A DNA stretch of 64,000 nt from positions 62,001 to 126,000 of the forward strand of contig RSEE01000063.1 in assembly GCA_003971905.1 (NCBI GenBank), given 5' to 3'. Under the pieces are notes generated by a model that was not told the DNA's origin, searched no databases, and was given only the letters and a program-made list of their open reading frames with translations. Below are positions 46,727 to 63,572 of this stretch, piece after piece. The position numbers and the translations under genes were made by a program. Position 1 is the stretch's first letter. Every line of letters begins with the position of its first letter. This stretch comes from Moniliella sp. 'wahieum'. Lineage: Eukaryota.

Positions 46727-48535
46727 GTTTGCTCGGTCTCGTGGGCGAACCGAACTGGTGCCAATTGTGGAGCTGTGCGAGCTGTGCGAACTGCCAACGG
46801 TGTCTTACCCAAACAATTGCATAACTCCCCCCCCCCGCCCACTTTTTCCGTGGTGTAAGCGTATGCTCATGATTGGAGATACTCGCGAGTCAAATTCACC
46901 CACCCGCAGCAACAGCTACCAAGCATAACGTAACTGGTTGTTCCCAGTCCTGGAATGCCAGATTACTTGTCTGTGAGAGATGGCTCGGTTAGCGGCACGT
47001 TCCTCGCGATAGGACCTGGCAGAAGCCAAAGCACCCTATCTTTCACCGTTGCGCCCTACCTTTCTATAGGACGCAGGTGCCTTGGCTGTTCTATATCTCT
47101 GGCTGGGTTCAGATGGATGAACGCGCACGGATGCAGTTGGCCCGCGCTAGCCAGATGGTCCTGCGCGCAGTACACAATGTGAGATTAGGCTACTAGGCTC
47201 CTGAGAATTCCGCCTGACCGGTGAGCCGCCCAGGGCGCCCCTAACTTGCATCTTCTCTCCGACCTGGCCGCGTCTCTCCATTGGGGGCAGGGCGGGACAG
47301 AGGGCGGTCATGCCCACGAGAGAAAACTCAATATAGCAGACGAGCTTGGTCTACTGACCACACGCTTCCCATATCAATGAGGCGTCCACGTGTCTTGAAG
47401 CATGAGGCCTGAGGCTTGATCGCCCGTCCGGATTGGAGAGCGTTAGCTCATGCTGATTGTGCGCGGGAGGGGGGTGCATGTGACATGCGAAGCTTCAAGT
47501 ATGAAGACGAGGGCGGCAACGCCCGTCCATCTGCATACCGAACTGGGTTCCCGGTTACCATTTACCCCTTACTCTCGACGGGAACGGAACACACCGGGCG
47601 CCCATCCCCGGCACGTCGCCCGTCTGCCAGTGCCAGCGGGGGCACTTGATCATCGTATCCGCCATGGGTAACTGAGCAACTCACTGTGTACATAAGTGGC
47701 GTTTACTGCGACGTGTACTTTGCCCAGCTGGAACAACGGGGGGGGGGGGGGGGGGGGGCAGGGACTCAGGGACGCGGATGCTCGTTCCCCAGGGCACGTT
47801 GCCAGGCAACCCAATCCCCAGACTACGAATTGAAGAACAGCAGAAGTATTATTGTGCTCTGTCCAGGACACCCCGTCTTGCGCCCGGAAGCCGGAGGCCT
47901 GGTCGATAATGCTGATCGAAATTGCTCAGAAGTCTGGGCCTGAGGCGCGTGAGGCGTGAGGGAGGGCTGAGGCGCTGAGGGCGCTAGCGGGGACTGAAGG
48001 AGAGCTAGGTGGGTGCACAACGCAGCCCACGGTTAGGCCGGAGGTGCCTCCCCCGTACCTGAGGCCGGCGTGAGCAACTGAAGCATGCAAGATGACAAGA
48101 TGGATGCAGGATACGATTGAATACTGATGGCCCAAACGGGTGGTGCGATTGCGGCCGCAAATCAAACCAGACGTGGTTTGGCTGAGTGCGTCGCCTGGTG
48201 ACATGTGACATGTCGCAGCACCACACGCCACGCTCGGCACGTGTGCTGAGCTAAGCCACGCGCCCACTGCAGCGCTGCTGGGCGTTCCAGCGCAGTCGAT
48301 GGCTGATGTCACCGCTCGTGCGTCCGATTCGCAGTGCTCGGATCAACATCCAGTCAGCCGTGCATTTAATCACTCTGGCGCCCATTCCATATTCCCAGCG
48401 CCGTTCGAGAGCAGTAAGCACCGCGTTTTAACCTCTGTTCTCTTCTCTCTTCCTCTTCGCCTCTTCGCCTCTTCGCCTCCTCCTCTCCTCCTCTCCTCTC
48501 CTCCTCCTCCTCCCTCCCCCCCCAAGAGCCTCCCC

Positions 48536-50553
48536 ATGGCTGCCCCCTCTACAGTACGTCGCCCCCCCGCGTCTTCCCCTCCCACACTGACCCCCCTCTC
48601 CCAGCCACGGCGTCGGGCCATCTGTTCCATGCCGGCCAGATCCTCATCGCCACCGTCGGCTTGCCCGCGCGCGGCAAGACCCATCTGAGCCATGCCCTGG
48701 AACGCTACCTGCTCTGGCTCGGCGTCAAAGCCAAGGTCTTTTCCCTCGGCGACTACCGCCGCAAGCGCCTCGGCAAGCCCAACGACCTCCCCGACGACTA
48801 CTTCTCCGTCGGTGGCGGCAAGCCTGCTACCGAGCAGCTCCGCGCCCAGATCGTCGACGAGTTCGACAAGCAGGTCTTCGAATACTTCCAGGCCGGCAAC
48901 CAGGTCGTCATCTACGACGCCAACAATGGCAAGCAAGCCACCGCGCTGCCTTGCTCGCCAAGTTTGCGCCCCTCCATGTCTCCGTCATGTTTCTCGAGAC
49001 CATCTGCGACGACCCCAGGGTTATTGAGCACAATGTACGAGCAGTCAAACTCAACAGTCCCGACTACCAAGGATGGAAGAAGGACAAGGCCGTGGCTGAT
49101 TTTTATCGCCGCATCCACACTCGCCAGATGGAGTACGAAACCATCACCAATCCCGACCTGTCGTACGTCAAGATTATCAATGTGGGCCAACGCGTGATTA
49201 TCAACAACGTCCGCGGCTACCTCCAGTCCCGAATCTGCTTCTTTCTCATGAATGTCCACAACCGCGACCGTACCATCTATCTCGCCGTGCCGGCGAGGCC
49301 CTGGTTGACCACTGTACAAAGCCGATGCCGACCTGTCCTCCTTGGGCTGGCAATATGCCGAGGAACTGACCGAGTTTATGGACAAACTCCGTCGCGAACG
49401 ATCCGATCTTTCGACCACTTCCTCGCCGACACCCATGTCACCCAAACTTTTGGCCGTCGGCGGGCGCCTTACCGGTATCCACGACGACCACACCCACCCG
49501 TCTTCCCTTTCTTTCTCCCCGTCTGCCCACCCCAAGCATCACGTCTGTAGTCCGCTCGCAAGCAGCCCTCCGTCCACCGACGACAAAGAGATCCCCAAGT
49601 CGGGCGAGCCTGTACTCCTGCCGGCCCGCGCCTTCGCTCTCAAACAGCAAGTTCGACAGTGTCCGAGTCCCCTGCGCCACGGCGTCTGGAAGTGTGGACG
49701 TCCAATCGGCGGCGTGCGGCTCACACGTGCTCCTTTTTCCCGCAACAGGGCGATAAGTTGGAGAAATCCCAATTGTGTGAACTCAACCCCGGCATGGTCG
49801 ATGGCATGACCGAGGCGGAGATCAAGGAAATGTACCCGGTCGAGTACGACCGGTTGCAAAAGGAGCCCTATGGAGCGCGTTACCCACGCGCCGAGTCGTA
49901 TCACGATCTCTGTGTGCGCATCGAGCCAGTGATCATGGAACTGGAACGCACCGCGTCGGATATCCTGATTGTGGCACAGGCCAGTGTGCTGCGCGTCCTC
50001 CTTGGTTACCTCCAAGGCCAATCTCCGCAACAGATTCCGCACATTGACGTGCCCGAAGGCGACGTGCTGGAGATCACCCCGCAAGCGTACGGGATGCAGA
50101 CCAAATCACATCACTTTTGGGACCCGATCCTGCGCCGGCGACAGCGGGACCAAGCGTGGATCAGAGAACAACGCGCCGCTTCCGCGTCCCGCGCCATTCC
50201 CGCGCCCCCTCTCGCGCCCGCAGCACCACCGCCTCTCCCTTCTCGGCCCTCGCAGCTCCCGAAGCAGCATGGGAACGCTCCCGAGTCCCCGAATGGGCGG
50301 TCATCTGCTTGCCCTCACCCCGGCTCACAGTCATACCTCGGACAAGTCTCATGCTCATGTCCCCGGTCACGCAATCCCCCCGCTTCACCTGCCTCTGCAA
50401 AGTGATACAATGAGCCTGTCGGAAGACGAGGAGGCCGAACTGCGCAGAGAGCGGAGGGAACGCGAACGGGCTGCTGCGCTGGATCAGTTGGCTGACGAGT
50501 TGGGCGAAACGTCCATCTTGGACGACACGAGTCATGAAGTTGCGGTCCTCTAA
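48536..50553 (+). CDS. 6-phosphofructo-2-kinase/fructose-2,6-bisphosphatase-like protein (YLR345W-type); intron 48554-48604
   Basis: SGHLFHAGQILIATVGLPARGKTHLS; SLGDYRR; VVIYDANN; SPDY; KIINVG; ELNPG; RYPRAESYHDLCVRIEPVIMELER; SVLRVLLGYL. Confidence 0.92.
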
Positions 50554-52335: not shown

Positions 52336-53609
52336 GAGGCCGATGGTTAAAACCACCTCGCCCCAAGTCGCACGCCCCCCATCCGCCCCAAAAACTCAAA
52401 GCGAAGCATCCGGGCGGAATTTATGGCGGAACGCGGATTTGGTTTGCCCCACATTCTGACTCCGCTGCGTATTAGTAAAACTCGGTATTAGAAGACAGAG
52501 ACGCGCTGTTCCTATTTAATAGTAGATAGTAGATTCGCCTACCAGATTCGCCCACCCGCACCTGCACTTGCTCGCAACGTGTGCCCGTCCATGGATCAGG
52601 ATAACTAGTGTCGCCACCAGGTCGGGTCTCTCTGGCAATTATTACGGATACAGATGGGCATGGTGTGGACATATGTGAACGATGAACGATGATAGACGAT
52701 GGACCGAACTGATGAAGAGAGAAGCCCCTTCTTCAAAACAGACTTCTCAGTACTACCGTTCACTGTCCACAAGGTCCAAAGCGATACATTAAAAGTCTTG
52801 GTGGCATAATACCCTAGCATCATAATCATAACCAGTACCAGAAGGTGTCACCGATAGCGGGCGGCGGGCCCGGCTGAACCTACGCTCTCTTCGTCTTCCT
52901 CACCCCGACTCCAGGTGAGTCGAATGGCCGCAACGGCAATGGCGTCTCCCCTTTTTAGGATGGGAAAGAGGAAAATGTGCCCAGTAAGGGGTGAGGGGCC
53001 AGATCTGGTCAGTGATCTGACCCGAGCTAAGTGTAACGGCTTGTTGGCTTCCCAGCGGAGACCTTTTCCCTATACCCATCGAGACAGGACTCACGGAGAG
53101 GACGGAACGCATTTCAGATCCAGAGTCCAAGGAACACTGGCGTGAACGTAGGAGGTCGCGAACAGTGATTTACTGTTCGTCGGGCAGAGCCAGGCAGCGT
53201 CCACAGAGGTTGCACGTTAGGGGCCGGACAGAAAGCGGGGAGCTTCGATTGGCGAGGGAGGGCAAGTGAGCTGATCAAAGGTGGCTCTTATCGAGTGGAA
53301 TTCTCCTAGAAGAAAGTGAGAGGAAAGAGGGTGGTGTGGCGCTTGGGCCATCACAATTGGATCTAAGAACAGCAGGTTTTTGTAGAGACTAAAGAAAACA
53401 AAGGAAAGACCAACAAGTCTAATACAGCGTAAAGGGAAACGAGTCAAGGGGGAGAGTGAGGACCAAGCACGAGGCATGAGTGAGGATGAGGGCGGGGGAC
53501 AAGGGCAAAGCGGACCCGAGACAGAAACGATGCGAGAAACCAATCAAACCATGTGTAGTTTTTGGAATCCAAATCCCACAGTCAAGCCCTGGCTAGCTCT
53601 GCAGTGTCC

Positions 53610-53865
53610 TTCCTCCCCTGCCCTTCCCCCCTACTAAACCCTGCGGCTTCAGACACGCGGTAGGCTTCAGATAGGTTCCTACTGCCCAAGCCGGTCCACT
53701 GCAGAGCCGCCTCTGCTACACGGTGAGAAGCCCTCCTTGTCCCCAGCTCCACTCGGACACAATCAGCCCAAGCAGGTAAATTCCGTGAATCTACCTTCGG
53801 ACCTCCAGGGGATTGAACCCCTAGGCCCTCCTGCGGGCCGACCCCTGGCGGCGCCCACCTGTGGC
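53610..53865. repeat. Dispersed repeat, copy 1 (diverged direct copy at ~57545-57800)
   Basis: Shared ordered blocks ggcttcagac, agccgcctctgcta, ctccttgtcccYagctcc, gcccaagc, ccgtgaRtc, gggattgWacccc, ggcgccc. Confidence 0.75.
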
Positions 53866-55013
53866 GCAAGCGACCACCACCGTTCGTTGTATAGGTGCCA
53901 TCCTTTCTTCAACACAACCTCACTAGAACACTCGACTAAGAACACCCTACTAGTCAGGGAGGGATGAATGAGATAACCAGCTCTGCGCCTCTGTTGCCTA
54001 TATTCGTCTTGGTCTTCTTGTTTATAGGAGACTGGGGTGCAGGCCCCTTCCCGGTCTGTGGACGGGCAAGTCTGTTTGGCCTCCGTTACAGAAGAATGAA
54101 AGGGCGACCTACTAGGGCCTTTCCGCGAGCTGGTGGAGGTACTTGTGGATACGAAGGGCTATCACAACATCATGAACTGCTCTTAGTAAGGTGTGCCAAC
54201 TTGACTTAAAATTGTATGGGGATATAACCGTGGGATGGTGAATGGAGGAAATCACAAAGAGGACATGAAATAGTCATGGAGACAGTATAATAGGCAACAG
54301 GCAACAACAGGCCGGTCACAGGGTCAGATCAAATACACAGTCGAATGGCCCCAGAATGACAGTGGTCACCCCGAGACAGAAGATCAAGTCAGGATCTGGA
54401 TTAAGATGTGAATTGGCCGTCAGAACCCCGGGGGTCAATAGCCACACGGTCTCCCGGGCTCTCCGTGGGGGTTTTTACGGTAACCAATTACTCGGTGGGT
54501 TGAAGGTAAACTCATGATGGTAATTTCGTGCATGTACCTGCAGTGGTGGTGAGAGGGGTTAGGACAAGTTGAGGCCTCTTTCGTGGTATAATAGAGCGTC
54601 TGATTATGTGTGGCCAGGCCGCGACCGACACGACAGGTTGGGGGGCCTGGCCCTACGCGCACTTCGACAAGTTCTGCTCCCAGGTCTCTCCGTATATGAG
54701 ATCTTTGTCGCCCATCTACCCCGAGTGCAGGTCCCATGATTTCATGTGGGTCAGCCGGCCCAATGACGATATGCATTATCCTCCCTCATGGGGGAGTAGA
54801 GACGAGGAAGCTGTCCATTGAATAAAACGTGAAGACACCACCTTGTGAAGGGGAGCGTGATGACGGTCCTCCGTGGATCTGATACGATATAAGGCCCCGT
54901 GCTTTCTCCGACCATCTTATCAAACAGAGTTCGCTCCCAACCACAACGAAGTCACTATCGTGGAAAGCTCGTAAAGACTATCGACCCTGCGCGTTGTGGC
55001 GACAACGGTCACC

Positions 55014-56537
55014 CCTATAGCCTGTTTTAAATTTGTACGGTTCATATACCTGTTGGCACGTTTCATCGATCTTTCATCCCGGGGGTATTTTTCTGGCGCC
55101 AAAAACGCTCAGAGAGGAGTAGTACAGAGGATGGGGTGTACGCCATCTGGGCTTACGCCGCGCGGGGCCCTACGAGTATCGCCCCCTCCCGCGCCATCCG
55201 TAGGGGTGGCGCGGTGGGAAGGGGCGCTCGCATGCCTTGAACCGCACAACGCAAGAGCCAGGACGAAAAGAGGGCGGTGAACGTGCGGTAGGAACCGGCG
55301 TTCGCCTCCCCCTTCCAGTGCGCCAAAGCAGCCTTGGCCTCACCGTGGGCGTAGCCGCCTGCGGTAAAGACCAAGGGCACAAAAGCACCCGTAGTAATCG
55401 CGTCGTACTTGCGGTGCTTGTCCTTGACGGCCGTCTCGACAAACACATCCATCTCCTTCCTGCGCAGCTCGGGCGCCGGCGTCGTGGCGGCGAGTTGCTG
55501 GCGGACGCGGCGCATGTCGGCGTCGCGCGTCTTGTTCCCAAAAGACCAAAACGTCAGGTCGTAGCTTGTCGAGGTGCCCTTCGAGGCACCGGTTCCTGTC
55601 AGCTTGATGTCGGTGCGGAGCGCGGTGAGGTCGTAGCGCCCGGGGCGCTGCGGCTGGGTGAAGGGCTCGGTCTCCACCTCGGTGGCCGGGATGTGCCGGA
55701 CCATGTTGACGATGCAGCGTCGGAGCGTCTCGTGGCGGTAGTTGCCAATCGAGCGCCACCGGTTGCAGGACTGCAGTGCCCCATCGGGGCAGGGTCTGTT
55801 GCAGTCCGGCAGACGGCGGCGTGCCGGCAGAGGGTGCGGAGGTGCAGTCCAGCCATGACCTCGTGGTCAGTAAGCGATAAAGCTGAGTCGAGGGCACCAC
55901 CGACATCCACGTCCGGTTGAGCGCTTCGGCGTTCTCTAGCAGCCGGTGGCCCAACTCGGGCGGCAGCTCGGTCAGTAGCTTCGTCTGTTGGTCGGCAAAC
56001 ATGGCGGTCGTCCGTTCCCGCTGCGACTGTCGGGTGGCCGCTGGCGCGTCTCTCTCTCTCTCTCTCTCTCGGTCGCCGCCAGCAAGCACCTTTTCCACCC
56101 ACACATCCGCCTCCTCGCATGAGGCCGCCCGCGCGTGGGGAGCAACGTCGAGGTGGGAGAAGAAGCCAAGCCCGCCGCTCCGGGCGGGGTTGTCCCTCCA
56201 CATCGTTCGGGTCGGCGCCCCGAATGGCCTTGACCTCCTGCCACAGCTGCACGTCAATCTCGCGCAGCTCATCCACGAGATCGTCCGTCCGCATGCAGCG
56301 CAGCAAATGGCGGAGGTTGTGCTGCAGGCACGACCGCAAGAGCAGCAGCCGATCCTGCAGCAGGAGACCATGCAGGGCGGGGTAGCGAGAGGCTTGGTCC
56401 GCAATCTTGTCCCGCAGAAAGGCAGGCGGGCGTCCCGGGGCCCAATGCACGAGCCGAGGACCTTGGCACCCTGGGCCTGCATCTCTCCTATAGCCTGTTT
56501 TAAATTTGTACGGTTCATATACCTGGCACGTTTCATC
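55014..56537 (-). mobile_element. 5'-truncated CRE-clade (Cnl1/MoTeR/SLACS-like) non-LTR retrotransposon: RT C-terminus, CCHC finger, REL endonuclease; ORF remnant 56486-55153
   Basis: GAKVLGSCIG; LLLLRSCLQHNLRHLLRC; PAR.GGLG; W..VVP; CxxC..H..C; YRHE; RTDI..YDLT; K..KY; FVPLVFTAGG. Flanked by near-identical direct repeats at 55014-55067 and 56487-56537. Confidence 0.88.
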
Positions 56538-56599
56538 CCTGTGGTGGGTATTATACGGAGCGCAGCAGGTCCGTTGTTTCCTTCTTTGTTCCCCGCCCA

Positions 56600-57241
56600 G
56601 AAACTGTCTCTCCTTGTAGCGACTGCTCCCCTGTTCCTTGTATCTCTCCCCATTTCTCCCCCGTTTTCCCTCTACTGTGTTGTTTCCCTTTAGCCCCCCT
56701 GCTTTTTATGCAACGATGGTTCATGAGTTTCACTGTCACGGGCCAAGGCGGGATGGCAAGCCCGGCGGCGCGTACGTGCGCCCTTCGCCATATCCTAACC
56801 CCGTCCCAGTTGGTCATGGTTCGGATCCGACCTGATCCGATCTGCAAGCTGAGGCCTGTCTGCTCTATCTGGTCAAAGAGCCCGCTCCCAAGTCTTATTC
56901 CAAGTCCACCTCGTTTGGCGCAAACGCCAGCGCGATATCAAGTCTACGTACTCAGCGACCAATAGTCGCCTTCCGCCTCAGTGAATTGAGAACCTCTCAG
57001 TTTCGTCGCTCCCCGCCCCCCGTTGTGTTTCTTGCGACGCTAGTCGCCCGTGCTTCTTGATCTTACTTCTTCTCTGCTCTGATAGTAACCCCGAGCGACG
57101 CTAGTCGCCCCATGCCTGTTTCCCTTACCTTTCTATAACGTCTCCCTGTCTCCCCTGTTCCCCATTCTCCCTCTGTTGCCTTGTTTCCCTTTTAGTCCCC
57201 CTGCCTGTTAGCAATGGTTCGTGGCTTTCCCCCACGGTCCA
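56600..57241. repeat. Diverged tandem duplication of a pyrimidine-rich unit (56600-56745 vs 57125-57241) with internal GCGAC-N4/6-GTCGC palindromes
   Basis: Shared ctcccctgttcc, ttgtttccctt(t)tagYccccctgc, gcaa..atggttcRtg, cacggKcca; gcgacgctagtcgccc at ~57034 and ~57095, gcgaccaatagtcgcc at ~56955. Confidence 0.7.
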
Positions 57242-57544
57242 TCTTGTCCCCTTGTCCCCTTCGCCACCCTTGACTCCTCGCCTGTTCACCCCTTCACCCC
57301 CTGCCCGTTTCTCGCCAATTGATTCAGTACAGGCAACTCCTCCCGCTCTTAGTCGACGTTCTACTCCGGCGCAGATCGCCAACCCTCGTCCTCGTCCTCA
57401 GCACTCAGTACTCAGCACCCAGTTCCCCTTGTCCGCGTGAGCCCTCCTTGTGCCACGCCTCGGTCCAGCCCAGTTAAGCCGCGGTGATACTGTCCTTTGC
57501 CACGCCGCTCCCCGTCTCAGTCCAACCCCAGTCCAGCAGCATGG

Positions 57545-57800
57545 GTTCTCCGCTGCCTTCCCCTTCCCTGAGCCCGAAGGCTTCAGACGCGCTACTGCCC
57601 TCCCAAGCTGGTGCTACGCAGCCTTGCCACACTTGCAGCCGCCTCTGCTATACGCCGAGAGGCCTCTCCTTGTCCCTAGCTCCGCAGCGGACCCACCAAC
57701 GTGCCCAAGCGCGTAACTACCGTGAGTCGTCCTTAGGACCCCAAGGGATTGTACCCCAAAAGCCCCGGGGCGGCCCCCCTGTTGGCGCCCGCCCCCTGAC
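57545..57800. repeat. Dispersed repeat, copy 2 (see 53610-53865)
   Basis: Same ordered blocks as 53610-53865. Confidence 0.75.
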
Positions 57801-58199
57801 ATTCACATACAAAATGCATTCAATGACGTCTTCAGACCAAAGGCATTTCTACCTGGGTCAACGGCAACTCCTCCTTTAGTTGCCTACTCTGATTTGGGCC
57901 ATTTCGCATCTCAGTTTTCCATCTCTCAATTCCATATTGTTATCAACCACTCTACCGGCTCGCTATTTCCCGACCCGGTGCTTCCGCAGCCTTGCCATAC
58001 GATTACATTACGACGATTGGTCGCTTCCTCCCGGCCCCAAAACTGGACCAAACTACCACGCCATGTCATGATGGGATGTATTATGCGGAGGCCACGACAA
58101 ATGATTTGCATTCTTTGTTATCGATGACCCTGAGGAATCGTGCCAACCATCAGGCAAATGCATGTGTCGGGATTACTGTTCATCGCGTGGACGCATCAA

Positions 58200-59123: not shown

Positions 59124-59255
59124 CTGCAGGTCAGTGACGTCGTCGATGTCACCACTCTGAACATCAGATATGTCCTCGATGTCATCCCCCTGCAGGTCAG
59201 TTATGTCGCCGACGTCACCCCCTTGAACGTCAGAAACGTCGTTAACGTGCCCGTG
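59124..59255 (-). repeat. 4 x 33-bp tandem repeat encoding an acidic 11-aa unit
   Basis: Units start at 59124, 59157, 59190 and 59223; the minus frame reads VNDVSDVQGG DVGDITDLQGD DIEDISDVQSG DIDDVTDLQ. Confidence 0.85.
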
Positions 59256-60699
59256 GACGACGTATCTGACGAATCTGATCCTCCTATGCTCGCTCTTCAT
59301 GGGTTACTATTGGTATTACATTTTATATTACTACTCATTCTAGCACCATCGTATGCTGTGCAATCGTCTTCGAGGGTACTTTTTTGCATTGTGATGGGTC
59401 AATATGGACTTGGGGCTCGTCATTGAGAGGTCTTTGGAATGTTAGGCGCCAAATCAACACTCTTCAGTCTCAGAGTCGTCTGTACGGTCGTTGTCCTCGC
59501 CATCTGTGCCCTCTGCGTCAAAGAGGTTGACTGCAGTGCCTTCGTTGTCTCTCGTCTGTTATTTTTGCCGGGGTTACTGCGATGTGACGGAGGTGGGTGA
59601 GGTGTGCACGGGTCGCACGCCACATGCGGTACAAATTTCAGGGTTACCTTACGGAAGATGCGTGTCCGCAATGACCTCGTAATTCTCCCATGCACTCGGC
59701 CGACCCAGTAGATAGCTTGCGGGGCGATGAGTGAAAAAGAGTCAGATGACCTGCTGGACGACAACGGGGTAGCGACGTACTTATGATCGGACAAGAGACA
59801 GTGATGGCACTGAAAATGTCACTGCAGCGGTTGCTGTTGTTCAGACTCCGGTTGAGCAAGACGGTGCATAGGGCAGATGGGTCAGGGAAACTGTGATGTT
59901 GTAAGACACGTACCATTTCCCTCTTTCGAAGTCAATGTCGTTCGGTGCGTATGATGAGAACGGGTGAAGTAAGTTATCGTGGCCATATTGCGAGGAGAGC
60001 AAAACGCGTGAAGAGGCGAGGCCAGTACGTACCACTGCTATATGTTAAGCGGCCTCTTCTTGACCCTATACCCCACTCAGATTCACCAAAATGCTTTTAA
60101 CGCTAAACCTTTCCGACCTCTCCTCCAGATTAAATCCCTTGAAAACCGCCAGGTGGACTACCACAGTCTGGGGGCCACAGCCCACCAGTCATAGAGCGAA
60201 TCGTCCTTCACTGGCGCTAATTGCATCTACTCTATTGGAGGTGAAAATAGGAGCTGTGAGAGTGACTAGATAGTGACTAGATGGGGGGACACTAGCTACC
60301 ATCGTAGCATATTTACGTGCAATGCGATACCAATGTAGTGTCTTTTCAGTCTCTCCAGAATACATACACCCCGACTATGCGTCACGCACGCGAAGCAAGT
60401 CAAGCAACACATGCGGGTTAACATAGTTGCTACCCAAATCCCAGCACAAATAATGACTCTGGTCGCTCTCGTTTATTATTACTTTGTTTCACTCACGCAC
60501 AAATAAGTGCTACAATGAACATAAACTGCAACCAGCATATGATCGTCTTCCTGCTTAAAACGATTATGATATCTCTGTGGGGTTATTGCCATACAGAGCT
60601 GCAGACACTACACCAGTTGCACCAAAAGAATCCCTTGCAACAAACAATCTCATTGACTTATTAGGTCTTGAGCTTTTAGAGATACAAACAATTAGGAAT

Positions 60700-63572
60700 T
60701 TGACTGGGACTTGTATCACGGAGCAGTGCTAGTGTTCACTTGCGCTTGTCGCAATGGTTCCGTGAACCCTCGCTTGCGCTCCTGATTGCGCCAGTGCCTC
60801 AACCCCCTTGCTTCCTTTGCATCGCTTCCCTTACTCTTTGTTTCTTTTCCTTGAGTTCGCTTGAAGGACTTATCGGGGTGAACCAGCTCCATTGAGAGTC
60901 CCATGTCAAATCCGTCTGCTGCACAATTATCATGCCGGCTGTCTTGATACCGTAGTATCTTCGCGTCGTTAAAAGTAAGGCGAAAATGGATCGTAAATAA
61001 TCCAGGTGTATTGCTTGCATTTTTTTGCGACAGGCGCTATGTCATCCGTGTCACGCTCATTAACTTACCTTTCATCGTAGACAATCTTACGAGGCATCGT
61101 GCTTTGGGACAACAACATGTGGCCAGTATTTTTTTTTTTCAATCCGGACAGTTTCTTGAATCACGAGGTTTCTATCAATGACAGAAAATTGATACTAGAA
61201 CATTATTGTTAATGCAGCTCCAAAGTCAAACAGGCGGTCAATTACCCCCATATCGTCAGGACCAAGAGCCAGAGTATGCTCGGGAGACATAATTGTCTCT
61301 ATTCCGCAGTAGCACGCTGTGCGTTAGTGGATGGCGATAAGCCTATTGAAGACCAGTGTTTCTCGTGATTATCATTGGGAACCAAAATACTAATGTACCT
61401 AAGAACATGTAGCCACAACGACTGCTTCACAAGGAAATTCGTTTGTTGGACAACGACGTGTGACAGGACGGGGTAACCCAAAGACCTTCCTGTTAAGCCG
61501 GCGACGAATTATAGCAAAGTGTACCATCTCCATTGATGCTGTAGCTGGTGTTCATGGTGTGGTTTCTATCCGCCAAGTGTTATCCCCAATATTGGGGGTC
61601 ATTTGGCGAGCATTCTTATCAAGGGCCGTGTCGAGGTCGTGGTTCCCCCCGTTGAGCCTCCTTACCATTGTTCTGTCTTTGGCAACAGCAACCAGTGTAT
61701 GGCTCGTTCCCATTGCCACCGCTACCTTTTGTTGTTGTTGTTTTGTTATTACGCCTGTGAAGGCTTGGCGCAGTCACAATCATGGCTGCATGCGAAAGTA
61801 TCGCCCTTGCCATGAAAATCACTCCATATAGGTTCTATCAAGCGACCGTGGGACTTAACGGTCAAACCTGCCGCATTCAGCCTTGTTCGTCCAAGTGTGG
61901 ATTCTACCCTATATGTAATGGCCCACCAGAAGGACCCTGGGGGCGCTTAAGGGTTACAATCCATTGGGGGTCCAAAGGGGACCCACACCATACATTTACT
62001 TGTTTGGGCTGGTTGGTGGATCCGAGTAGAGCTATTGAGGAATGCGGCCACATTTGGCTTATTGTATAGTAAGCTAGAGGTGTGTCTCTGCGGTTCTTGC
62101 TGGCTGTGTCGTGCCTCAGCGAGAGCATACCACGTTCGGGATGAGATATGGAAGGTGTGCCTTTGTCAGTGGGAAATTGGGCAAGCTGTGTATGCGTCTG
62201 CCAGTTGGTCTGCAATGGGTCAGGCCAGGTGGCTAAGTTGAAGAAGGCTCGGTGTGGGTTGTTCTTTTCTGCGCAAGCCTGGTACAAAACCTTGGCGGCA
62301 GCGCTGCACACGCTGGCCTCTATTCATGCCACGCTTGCCGCTGAGTGCCTCTACATCAAGGACGGTCCGGAGCCAGTGTACCTGTTGTGCTGGGTTGACG
62401 ACACTTTGCTGCTGCCGTTAAGGGTGAAAACGCGCGTTGCATCGTGTTCATTGTGCGCGGTCTAATTTCTTTTGTCGGCCTCGCTACTACCACAGAATGT
62501 GAGCACTGAACGTCGTCTTGGACTAAGGAGCTTCTGCGACTTACTCGTCCAGAAGACTGGTGCGAGCTCGGAAGGAATGAAACGTGACTCAGGGTCGGCG
62601 CGGTCCTATGGGACGGATGTCAAATCTTTGTGTGTTGGTTGAGGAACTCGGCCCGTTTGAGCAAATTGCGGGACTCGATGTTAAATAAGATCGTGTTGCT
62701 GATCGGGACCAATATGCCAGTGTGGCTCCGCTCCTTGTGGAGAAGGGCATGGCTGGGGCTTCCGCGTTTTCTGCCTGTGACCAAATTGGGGGCCAGTGTA
62801 TTGCGTGCGCAGCGGACCGAGGAGCAGGAGGAAAGGACCAATCCCAAGCGCTCTGTGGTGGAGTACCAGTCACTGGTGGGTTCGAGATCCACAATGCGGC
62901 CCAAGGAACACACCGTTTGCTGCTGGATTTGTGGGGCAGTCTAATGACAAAAAGGCCAAGCAGTCATGGGAAGTCGTGAACGGGATTATTCGTTACCTGG
63001 TCGGTCACCAACTCAAGCTAGGGTACACCCACCAACCGATCGAGTTGATCCAAAGACGGAAGGACACTGAGACCTCGCTGAAGAGTTGGATCGGAAGTGC
63101 ATCGGAGGCTGCGTATTCAAGGTGTCTGATGCTGCTGTGTCATGGACAAATTGTGAACAGACCAACCTGACCCTGTCTATTATCGAGGCAGTGAGCTCAA
63201 TGCTGCCTTAGAAGGATTTCGTGAGGCAAAATGCATCTGCTCAGGATCGCAAAGTACTTTGGAATGAGTCAAAAAAGAGCATAACCATTGAAGTGGACGA
63301 TCAGCCTGCTTTGGCTTACTTGGCGGCAACTGAGAAGCATGATTGCAGTGAGCACTGAGGCGTCGAGCTCAAGGCAATACGCGAATGGGTGCAGGCCGGA
63401 ACAATTCAGTAAGAGGATTGTCCCACCCAGTCCATGGTGGCCGACTTCCTTGCGGAGGCCGTTCCTGGTCCTGCGCATGTCAACACTACGGACCACATTT
63501 TGATATCAGTGATTCCAGGGTGTCCGACGACGTCCCTCCCCGCGACCCCTCCCTCGGGAACCAGAGGGGACC
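60700..63572 (+). mobile_element. Degenerate Ty1/copia LTR retrotransposon internal region (weak integrase/SH3 remnant, RT, RNase H, PPT)
   Basis: KAKMDRK*SRC (~60975); KLKKARCGL...AQAWYKTL and CLYIK...LLCWVDD (62230-62402); EYQSLVG; IIRYLVG; SIIEA; VDDQPA; VPTQSMVADFL; purine tract AGAGGGGA at 63563-63570 followed by TG. Confidence 0.8.

Follow-up and report, generated by a model that had tools for sequence, protein, structure and literature searches.

A 5′-truncated retrotransposon remnant with a restriction-like endonuclease, bracketed by a 51-bp direct repeat that is most likely an unusually long insertion scar

The 64-kb stretch of DNA analysed here (the window) carries on its minus strand, at 55068-56486, a 1,419-bp fragment of a non-LTR retrotransposon with a restriction-like endonuclease (RLE), and this fragment lies between the two copies of a direct repeat. 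Most probably the repeat is an ordinary, though unusually long, insertion scar; there is no evidence of a new specific landing site. We consider it probable, if well short of certain, that a single target-primed insertion of the 5′-truncated element duplicated at least 51 bp of its target. The copy stands out by its notably long duplication, and a modestly interesting resemblance between the tail of the element and the target is newly observed.

The repeat copy on the 3′ side of the element (55014-55067) is 54 nt long with 39% GC, and the copy on the 5′ side (56487-56537) has 51 nt and directly adjoins the truncated reverse transcriptase (RT) sequence; neither is assigned a strand. An extra TTG in the longer copy, at about 55053-55055, is the sole difference between them, with no substitutions. 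A 39-mer common to both copies occurs exactly twice in the window, and two or more matches to it were found in none of 100 dinucleotide shuffles. Besides the query itself, BLASTN of 54900-56700 against the window returned the match between the two repeat copies (E = 1.7e-17, 94.4% over 54 columns) and a single weak match in CT-rich sequence, and the window holds no further copy of the 51-mer beyond the pair. A first-pass annotation of this DNA had described a direct repeat of about 51 bp, with a 3-nt indel, around an element that starts abruptly right after the copy at 56487-56537. Both descriptions hold, the 51- and 54-nt copies being the only such pair in the window.

Read in the orientation of the element, the upstream flank (56538-56552, minus strand; ...AATACCCACCACAGG) leads into the first repeat copy (GATGAAAC...CTATAGG), followed by the truncated element (AGAGATG... 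...AGAAAAATACCCCCGGGATGAAAGATC), the second repeat copy and the downstream flank (GGTGACC...). This upstream flank, extended by the repeat's first 7 nt, resembles the tail of the element. The heptamer CACCCCT (55010-55016, plus strand) straddles the outer edge of the 54-nt copy. At the 3′ junction, 55057-55085 on the plus strand reads TTTCATC-GATC-TTTCATC, a near-tandem duplication of 11 nt with the palindrome ATCGAT at its centre; an 11-nt segment, GATGAAAGATC, is also located inside 54.9-56.7 kb.

The element retains an open frame of 237 amino acids (55153-55866, minus strand; stop codon at 55153-55155), which contains a degenerate CCHC motif and an RLE domain with the motifs RHE, EP, RTD, YDLT and K..KY. 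On the same strand, 55773-56486 encodes in shifting frames the last part of the RT domain, the thumb/linker and the opening of the CCHC region. There are four frame changes, some of which may be assembly indel errors, and 56486 is the 5′ truncation point. A (TC)11 microsatellite without assigned strand (56049-56070) lies within the coding remnant, where the sense strand encodes an (RE)n run. The 3′ untranslated tail (55068-55152, minus strand) comprises 85 nt with a small hairpin, then AGAAAAA (A-run at 55088-55092), then TACCCCCGGGATGAAAGATC.

Among 1.84 billion representative proteins, 59 relatives of the 237-residue ORF were found at E ≤ 1e-3. The best of them (E = 3.9e-17) is only 36% identical, so no close relative is on record. 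All eight long relatives that were scanned (815-1301 residues) have an RVT_1 match upstream of the matched C-terminal region, above the Pfam cut-off in seven. An HMM built from these eight proteins (1011 positions) matches the window from profile position 602 to 1008 in five collinear pieces, running from 56494 down to 55234; the pieces occupy three frames with four frame changes, and tblastn gives the same picture. As read from these alignments, the copy begins at the very end of the RT domain, extends to the natural C-terminus, and is 5′-truncated and non-functional. Homologues and HMM agree in this with the RT C-terminus remnant that had been annotated on the minus strand. At 55153-55250 (minus strand), the ORF runs about 30 residues beyond the point, after an LLRAR motif, at which 16 of 18 aligned relatives end; the original stop may have been lost, or the family may have a C-terminal extension. 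Other searches were less productive. Pfam found no family in the three minus-strand frames, only a chance-level MgtE_N match (E = 0.16); a homologue search with the ORF restricted to longer proteins scored none of 2601 candidates; a metagenome scan with the ORF gave 88 pattern matches and no confirmed relative; and a protein-atlas query with one relative (P0010) returned only RVT_1 clusters without names.

In an alignment of the window ORF with 18 relatives (A1), RHE, EP, RTD, YDLT and K..KY occupy columns that are invariant or nearly so. The CCHC motif has degenerated to C-x3-C-x7-C, with a Leu in the conserved His column, and part of it spans a frame change according to the HMM; such a state is in keeping with decay of the copy and does not speak against the family. 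Of the motifs originally listed, RHE, RTD, DLT and K..KY stand on conserved columns of A1, whereas the CCHC finger survives in degenerate form only. The spacing in the window ORF is C-x3-C-x7-C, RHE, x20-E, x16-RTD, x16-D. The REL pattern given for SLACS/CRE and MoTeR1 in PMC12857005 is C..C..H..C-x9-10-RH(D/N)-x19-33-E-x9-21-R/K-P-D-x12-14-D/E, from which the window ORF departs in its RHE, its RTD and its x16, as opposed to x12-14, before the last acidic residue. Membership in the CRE/Cnl1/MoTeR group is plausible. The motif layout fits the CRE/MoTeR pattern.

An AlphaFold2 model of the 237-residue ORF, computed on A1, has a mean pLDDT of 76.8 and a pTM of 0.71, and in a Foldseek search of the PDB with this predicted fold the best six matches are R2 retrotransposon proteins (E = 7.9e-4 to 2.5e-2). 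Just one match reaches E ≤ 0.001, and PD-(D/E)XK nucleases rank after the R2 proteins. The A1 sequence profile likewise placed R2Bm first, at an E of only 0.73, over residues 938-996, which extend from the CCHC motif past RHN as far as the PD motif. The HMM, the RVT_1 domains of the relatives and the fold search together indicate a single protein in which an RT is followed by a CCHC motif and a PD-(D/E)XK endonuclease. The original identification as a non-LTR element with a restriction-like endonuclease is supported by homologues, HMM and R2 fold match, and the assignment of the remnant to the RLE-bearing elements of the R2/CRE supergroup is sound. Filobasidium floriforme, a basidiomycete yeast, is the sole organism name reached among the relatives; its protein, a relative of P0010, aligns to the window ORF over 191 alignment columns with 23% identity (E = 5e-8).

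The insertion lies downstream of housekeeping genes, namely COX5A at about 46.4-46.7 kb and a gene for 6-phosphofructo-2-kinase/fructose-2,6-bisphosphatase at 48.4-50.4 kb. The latter (6-phosphofructo-2-kinase/histidine phosphatase; 48418-50405, plus strand) is spread over three consecutive frames (48418-49197, 48591-49550 and 49551-50405), which reflect either introns or assembly indel errors. Between 51 and 64 kb the DNA bears repeats and is poor in genes; the nine long frames scanned there, the element's own ORF excluded, contain no Pfam family. In 53500-58000, Rfam gave four matches, none of which reaches the gathering score or lies at a junction. Neither a tRNA nor a telomere-repeat dimer, even with up to one mismatch allowed, occurs in the window. 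These results place the insertion in anonymous, gene-poor DNA without a recognizable multicopy target. It has no visible effect on any gene, and is otherwise ordinary transposon debris.

A specific repeated target, such as a spliced-leader gene or a telomere repeat, was not found in the window, where the 51-mer is seen as this pair only, and the 27-nt core of the repeat had no match in the metagenome scan. Neither TAACCC nor CCCTAA occurs at either candidate 3′ end; the only telomere-like words are TACCCCC after the A-run on the sense strand and, on the opposite strand, the CACCCCT noted above. An RNA gene at the 51-mer was considered, as the word ACCTGGCA recalls the 5′ end of U1, and was rejected because no Rfam match lies there. 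The idea of a minute element in the middle of a three-copy target array was also rejected, because the window has just two 51-mers. The earlier proposal of a new site-specific element and target finds no support in the window, the 51-mer and its flanks having no Rfam family at the junctions, no tRNA and no telomere repeat. The same applies to the proposal that one site was targeted repeatedly, since a target-site duplication (TSD) records one insertion.

Other features populate the surroundings. A diverged direct repeat of about 230-260 bp (53600-53860 and 57535-57795; 74% over a 160-column BLAST core) has one copy on each side of the insertion, 3.93 kb apart; an old pair of LTRs, a dispersed repeat and a duplication of local origin are all possible readings. 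Its left copy includes a tRNA-like (mascRNA) Rfam match at 53801-53852 that is far below threshold. A tandem repeat at 59139-59242 (33-bp unit, 3.2 copies, 73% matches) lies in the gene-poor stretch. Weak tblastn matches to RLE/RT relatives occur at 59864-59983 (plus strand, E = 0.036), 60877-60984 (minus strand, E = 1.3e-4) and 61344-61478 (minus strand, E = 0.003), in AT-richer sequence (46-50% GC) where the HMM of full-length relatives gave no confirmation and DNA similarity to the copy at 55068-56486 is absent. They may belong to a much older, decayed element of the same kind. The match at 60877-60984 was rejected as a second family copy, having neither HMM confirmation nor DNA similarity to the tail.

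The 5′ truncation at 56486 and the 51/54-nt direct repeat are hallmarks of target-primed insertion, and insertion by CRE-clade elements creates a TSD, which a repeat of this kind would represent. The geometry argues for this reading, because the copies border the element on one side at the 5′ truncation and on the other just past the 3′ untranslated region, and a 3-nt indel is all that separates them. In addition, the repeat (39% GC) is unlike both the coding remnant (66%) and the 3′ untranslated region (54%), and the 51-mer shows no RNA-fold signal (z = 0.56) of the kind expected of a structured element terminus. Composition is nevertheless of little help in deciding where the repeat came from, because the 51-mer is also AT-richer than the flanks (51.5% GC) and its composition provides no tie to the host. 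A TSD would further accord with a published rule: every known CRE and R4 element duplicates its target site, since its second nick falls downstream of the first (PMC3636483), and the size of CRE TSDs varies (PMC12278014). Against a TSD counts that the window offers just one copy of the element and no empty site, which leaves the 51-mer as putative host DNA.

The nick positions and the order of events would follow by analogy with R2 and CRE. The endonuclease would nick the bottom strand at the repeat's left boundary (in element orientation ...CACAGG^GATGAAAC...), and the freed 3′-OH would prime cDNA synthesis from the RNA's 3′ terminus. Reverse transcription would then stop within the end of the RT-coding region. 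With the top strand cut at least 51 nt downstream (...CTATAGG^GGTGAC...), fill-in would leave the segment between these cuts in two copies.

The element's terminal 30 nt are similar to the junction upstream (AATACCC-CC---GGGATGAAA versus AATACCCACCACAGGGATGAAA), the part of the tail concerned being AATACCCCCGGGATGAAA at 55072-55089 on the minus strand. The score of this match was reached by 2 of 5000 random 42-mers from the window. An exhaustive scan of both strands in 21,320 windows turned up 12 with at least this score, of which eight overlap the tail and four the junction, and the best score at any other place is 20 versus 24 for the tail and junction. The upstream junction is the best non-self match to the tail in the 64-kb window. 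Two further tests were not significant: the score of an alignment anchored at the repeat edge was reached by 99 of 1000 random windows, and the local score of the parts outside the repeat by 280 of 300 shuffles. The tail signal therefore depends on the 11-nt gap and on the first 7 nt of the repeat. Identity falls sharply at the repeat boundary, from 51 of 51 bases to a gapped and imperfect resemblance in which the outer 26 or so bases are about 69% alike.

Such a pattern could arise in two ways from a TSD. The duplication may be 51 nt long, with an RNA tail that resembles the target across the nick, in which case the site was perhaps chosen for its likeness to the element's own 3′ tail; homology-assisted site choice of this kind has already been proposed for MoTeR (PMC3636483). 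A more general version, which we hold to be doubtful, is that the RNA of the element terminates in a sequence imperfectly matching the DNA across its first-strand nick site (AATACCC..GGGATGAAA against AATACCCACCACAGG^GATGAAAC) and that fungal CRE-like elements choose sites partly by RNA-DNA resemblance. Were it true, each insertion would rebuild the target at its own 3′ side, which would explain head-to-tail stacking. Alternatively, the TSD may be about 70 nt long, with its start some 17 nt farther upstream at (AA)TACCC. In that case the small hairpin and AGAAAAA would form the end of the element, and three or four indels, but no substitution, would separate the repeat copies. The first nick would lie in a telomere-like, C-rich word whose strand sense matches that in which FoTeR 3′ ends meet TAACCC. 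The resemblance is a testable hint on site choice, a matter stated as an open question for Cnl1 (PMC12810828).

The same resemblance runs past the 51-mer into the upstream flank, and it could equally belong to a longer fragment of the tail, which counts against a TSD. The whole block, that is the 51-mer or perhaps about 70 nt from AATACCC, would then be the element's own 3′ end, and the upstream copy would be a second tail fragment from another RNA or DNA copy, arranged head-to-tail. An earlier, extremely truncated insertion could have been re-targeted at the same nick, or the arrangement could stem from a single event in which the RT, on reaching one template's 5′ end, switched to the 3′ end of a second RNA. 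The R2 reverse transcriptase is known for template jumping of this sort. We judge a head-to-tail origin unlikely, while granting it a real share of the probability: the similarity of block and tail extends beyond the 51-mer to what is the best tail match in the window, some 66 aligned bases are free of substitutions if only indels are counted, and both Cnl1 arrays formed by self-insertion (PMC12810828) and head-to-tail stacks of MoTeR and FoTeR (PMC7367193) are reported. On the other hand, neither between the copies nor after the 3′ end is there a telomere repeat, even a partial one, in the expected C-strand orientation, unlike in the MoTeR/FoTeR stacks. The contrast between 51 perfect inner bases and gapped outer ones also misfits the uniform divergence of one older copy, and is what a duplication beside a pre-existing similarity would produce; moreover, the AT-rich, unstructured 51-mer is unlike the rest of the element. 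The first-pass annotation had offered a long TSD and a head-to-tail 3′ end as alternatives, and both still stand, with the TSD now favoured.

The lack of significance of the extended similarity in two tests (99/1000 and 280/300) and the short TSDs of off-target Cnl1 insertions, just 0-13 bp, also weigh against a TSD. A duplication with another cause, such as mis-assembly, capture of cDNA during repair of a staggered break, or subsequent recombination or local duplication, seems to us improbable. The repeat-bearing, gene-poor character of the 51-64-kb region would suit it, but the copies bracket the element exactly, at the 5′ truncation and just after the 3′ untranslated region, an arrangement not expected from mis-assembly or random duplication, and the indel between them shows that they are not one collapsed sequence.

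If the repeat is indeed a TSD, this would be a clean off-target insertion of a fungal CRE-like element, with both nick positions readable from the junctions. The stagger would be at least 51 nt, far wider than in Cnl1 and near the TSD of SLACS (49 bp), which would suggest that a wide stagger is old in the clade.

Cnl1 of Cryptococcus neoformans shares with the present element a single type of RT-plus-RLE protein and a basidiomycete host. According to PMC12810828, Cnl1 is telomere-associated, is often 5′-truncated via target-primed reverse transcription, and leaves TSDs where it lands off the telomere. These off-target TSDs in Cryptococcus measure 0-13 bp, in contrast to at least 51 bp here, and the word CACCCCT is reported inside them. 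The same word at the repeat edge here may be a shared feature or a chance match. The accessible portion of the Cnl1 preprint (10.1101/2021.08.11.455996) contains no passage on TSDs.

MoTeR1 and MoTeR2 of Pyricularia oryzae and FoTeR of Fusarium oxysporum have an REL layout, C..C..H..C - RH(D/N) - E - R(A/P)D - D/E, that is matched here. Internal truncated relics of these elements are known (PMC7367193). MoTeR relics are described as always keeping at least part of a telomere repeat where their 3′ end meets the flank (PMC7367193, PMC12857005), and in FoTeR the sequence after the 3′ end is TAACCC (PMC12857005). These elements sit in telomere repeats, where a TSD cannot be defined, whereas here the 64 kb contain no telomere repeat and the direct repeat is long and clear.

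The founders of the CRE clade in trypanosomatids, SLACS, CZAR, CRE1 and CRE2, are RLE elements like the one described here, whose repeat is a probable TSD. According to PMC3636483 and PMC12278014, they always make TSDs, which are variable in size and sometimes large. They occupy one fixed position in the spliced-leader gene and usually end in poly(A), whereas the present insertion lies in anonymous DNA and its A-run has at most 5 bases. R2 of insects and birds (9dou, 8gh6, 8ibw-8ibz, 9nl2, 9nl3) provides the six best PDB fold matches to the ORF, at about 14% sequence identity. R2 targets 28S rDNA and, in the account of PMC3636483, mostly produces small deletions or no change and no long duplications; the remnant described here, in contrast, sits within a long direct repeat.
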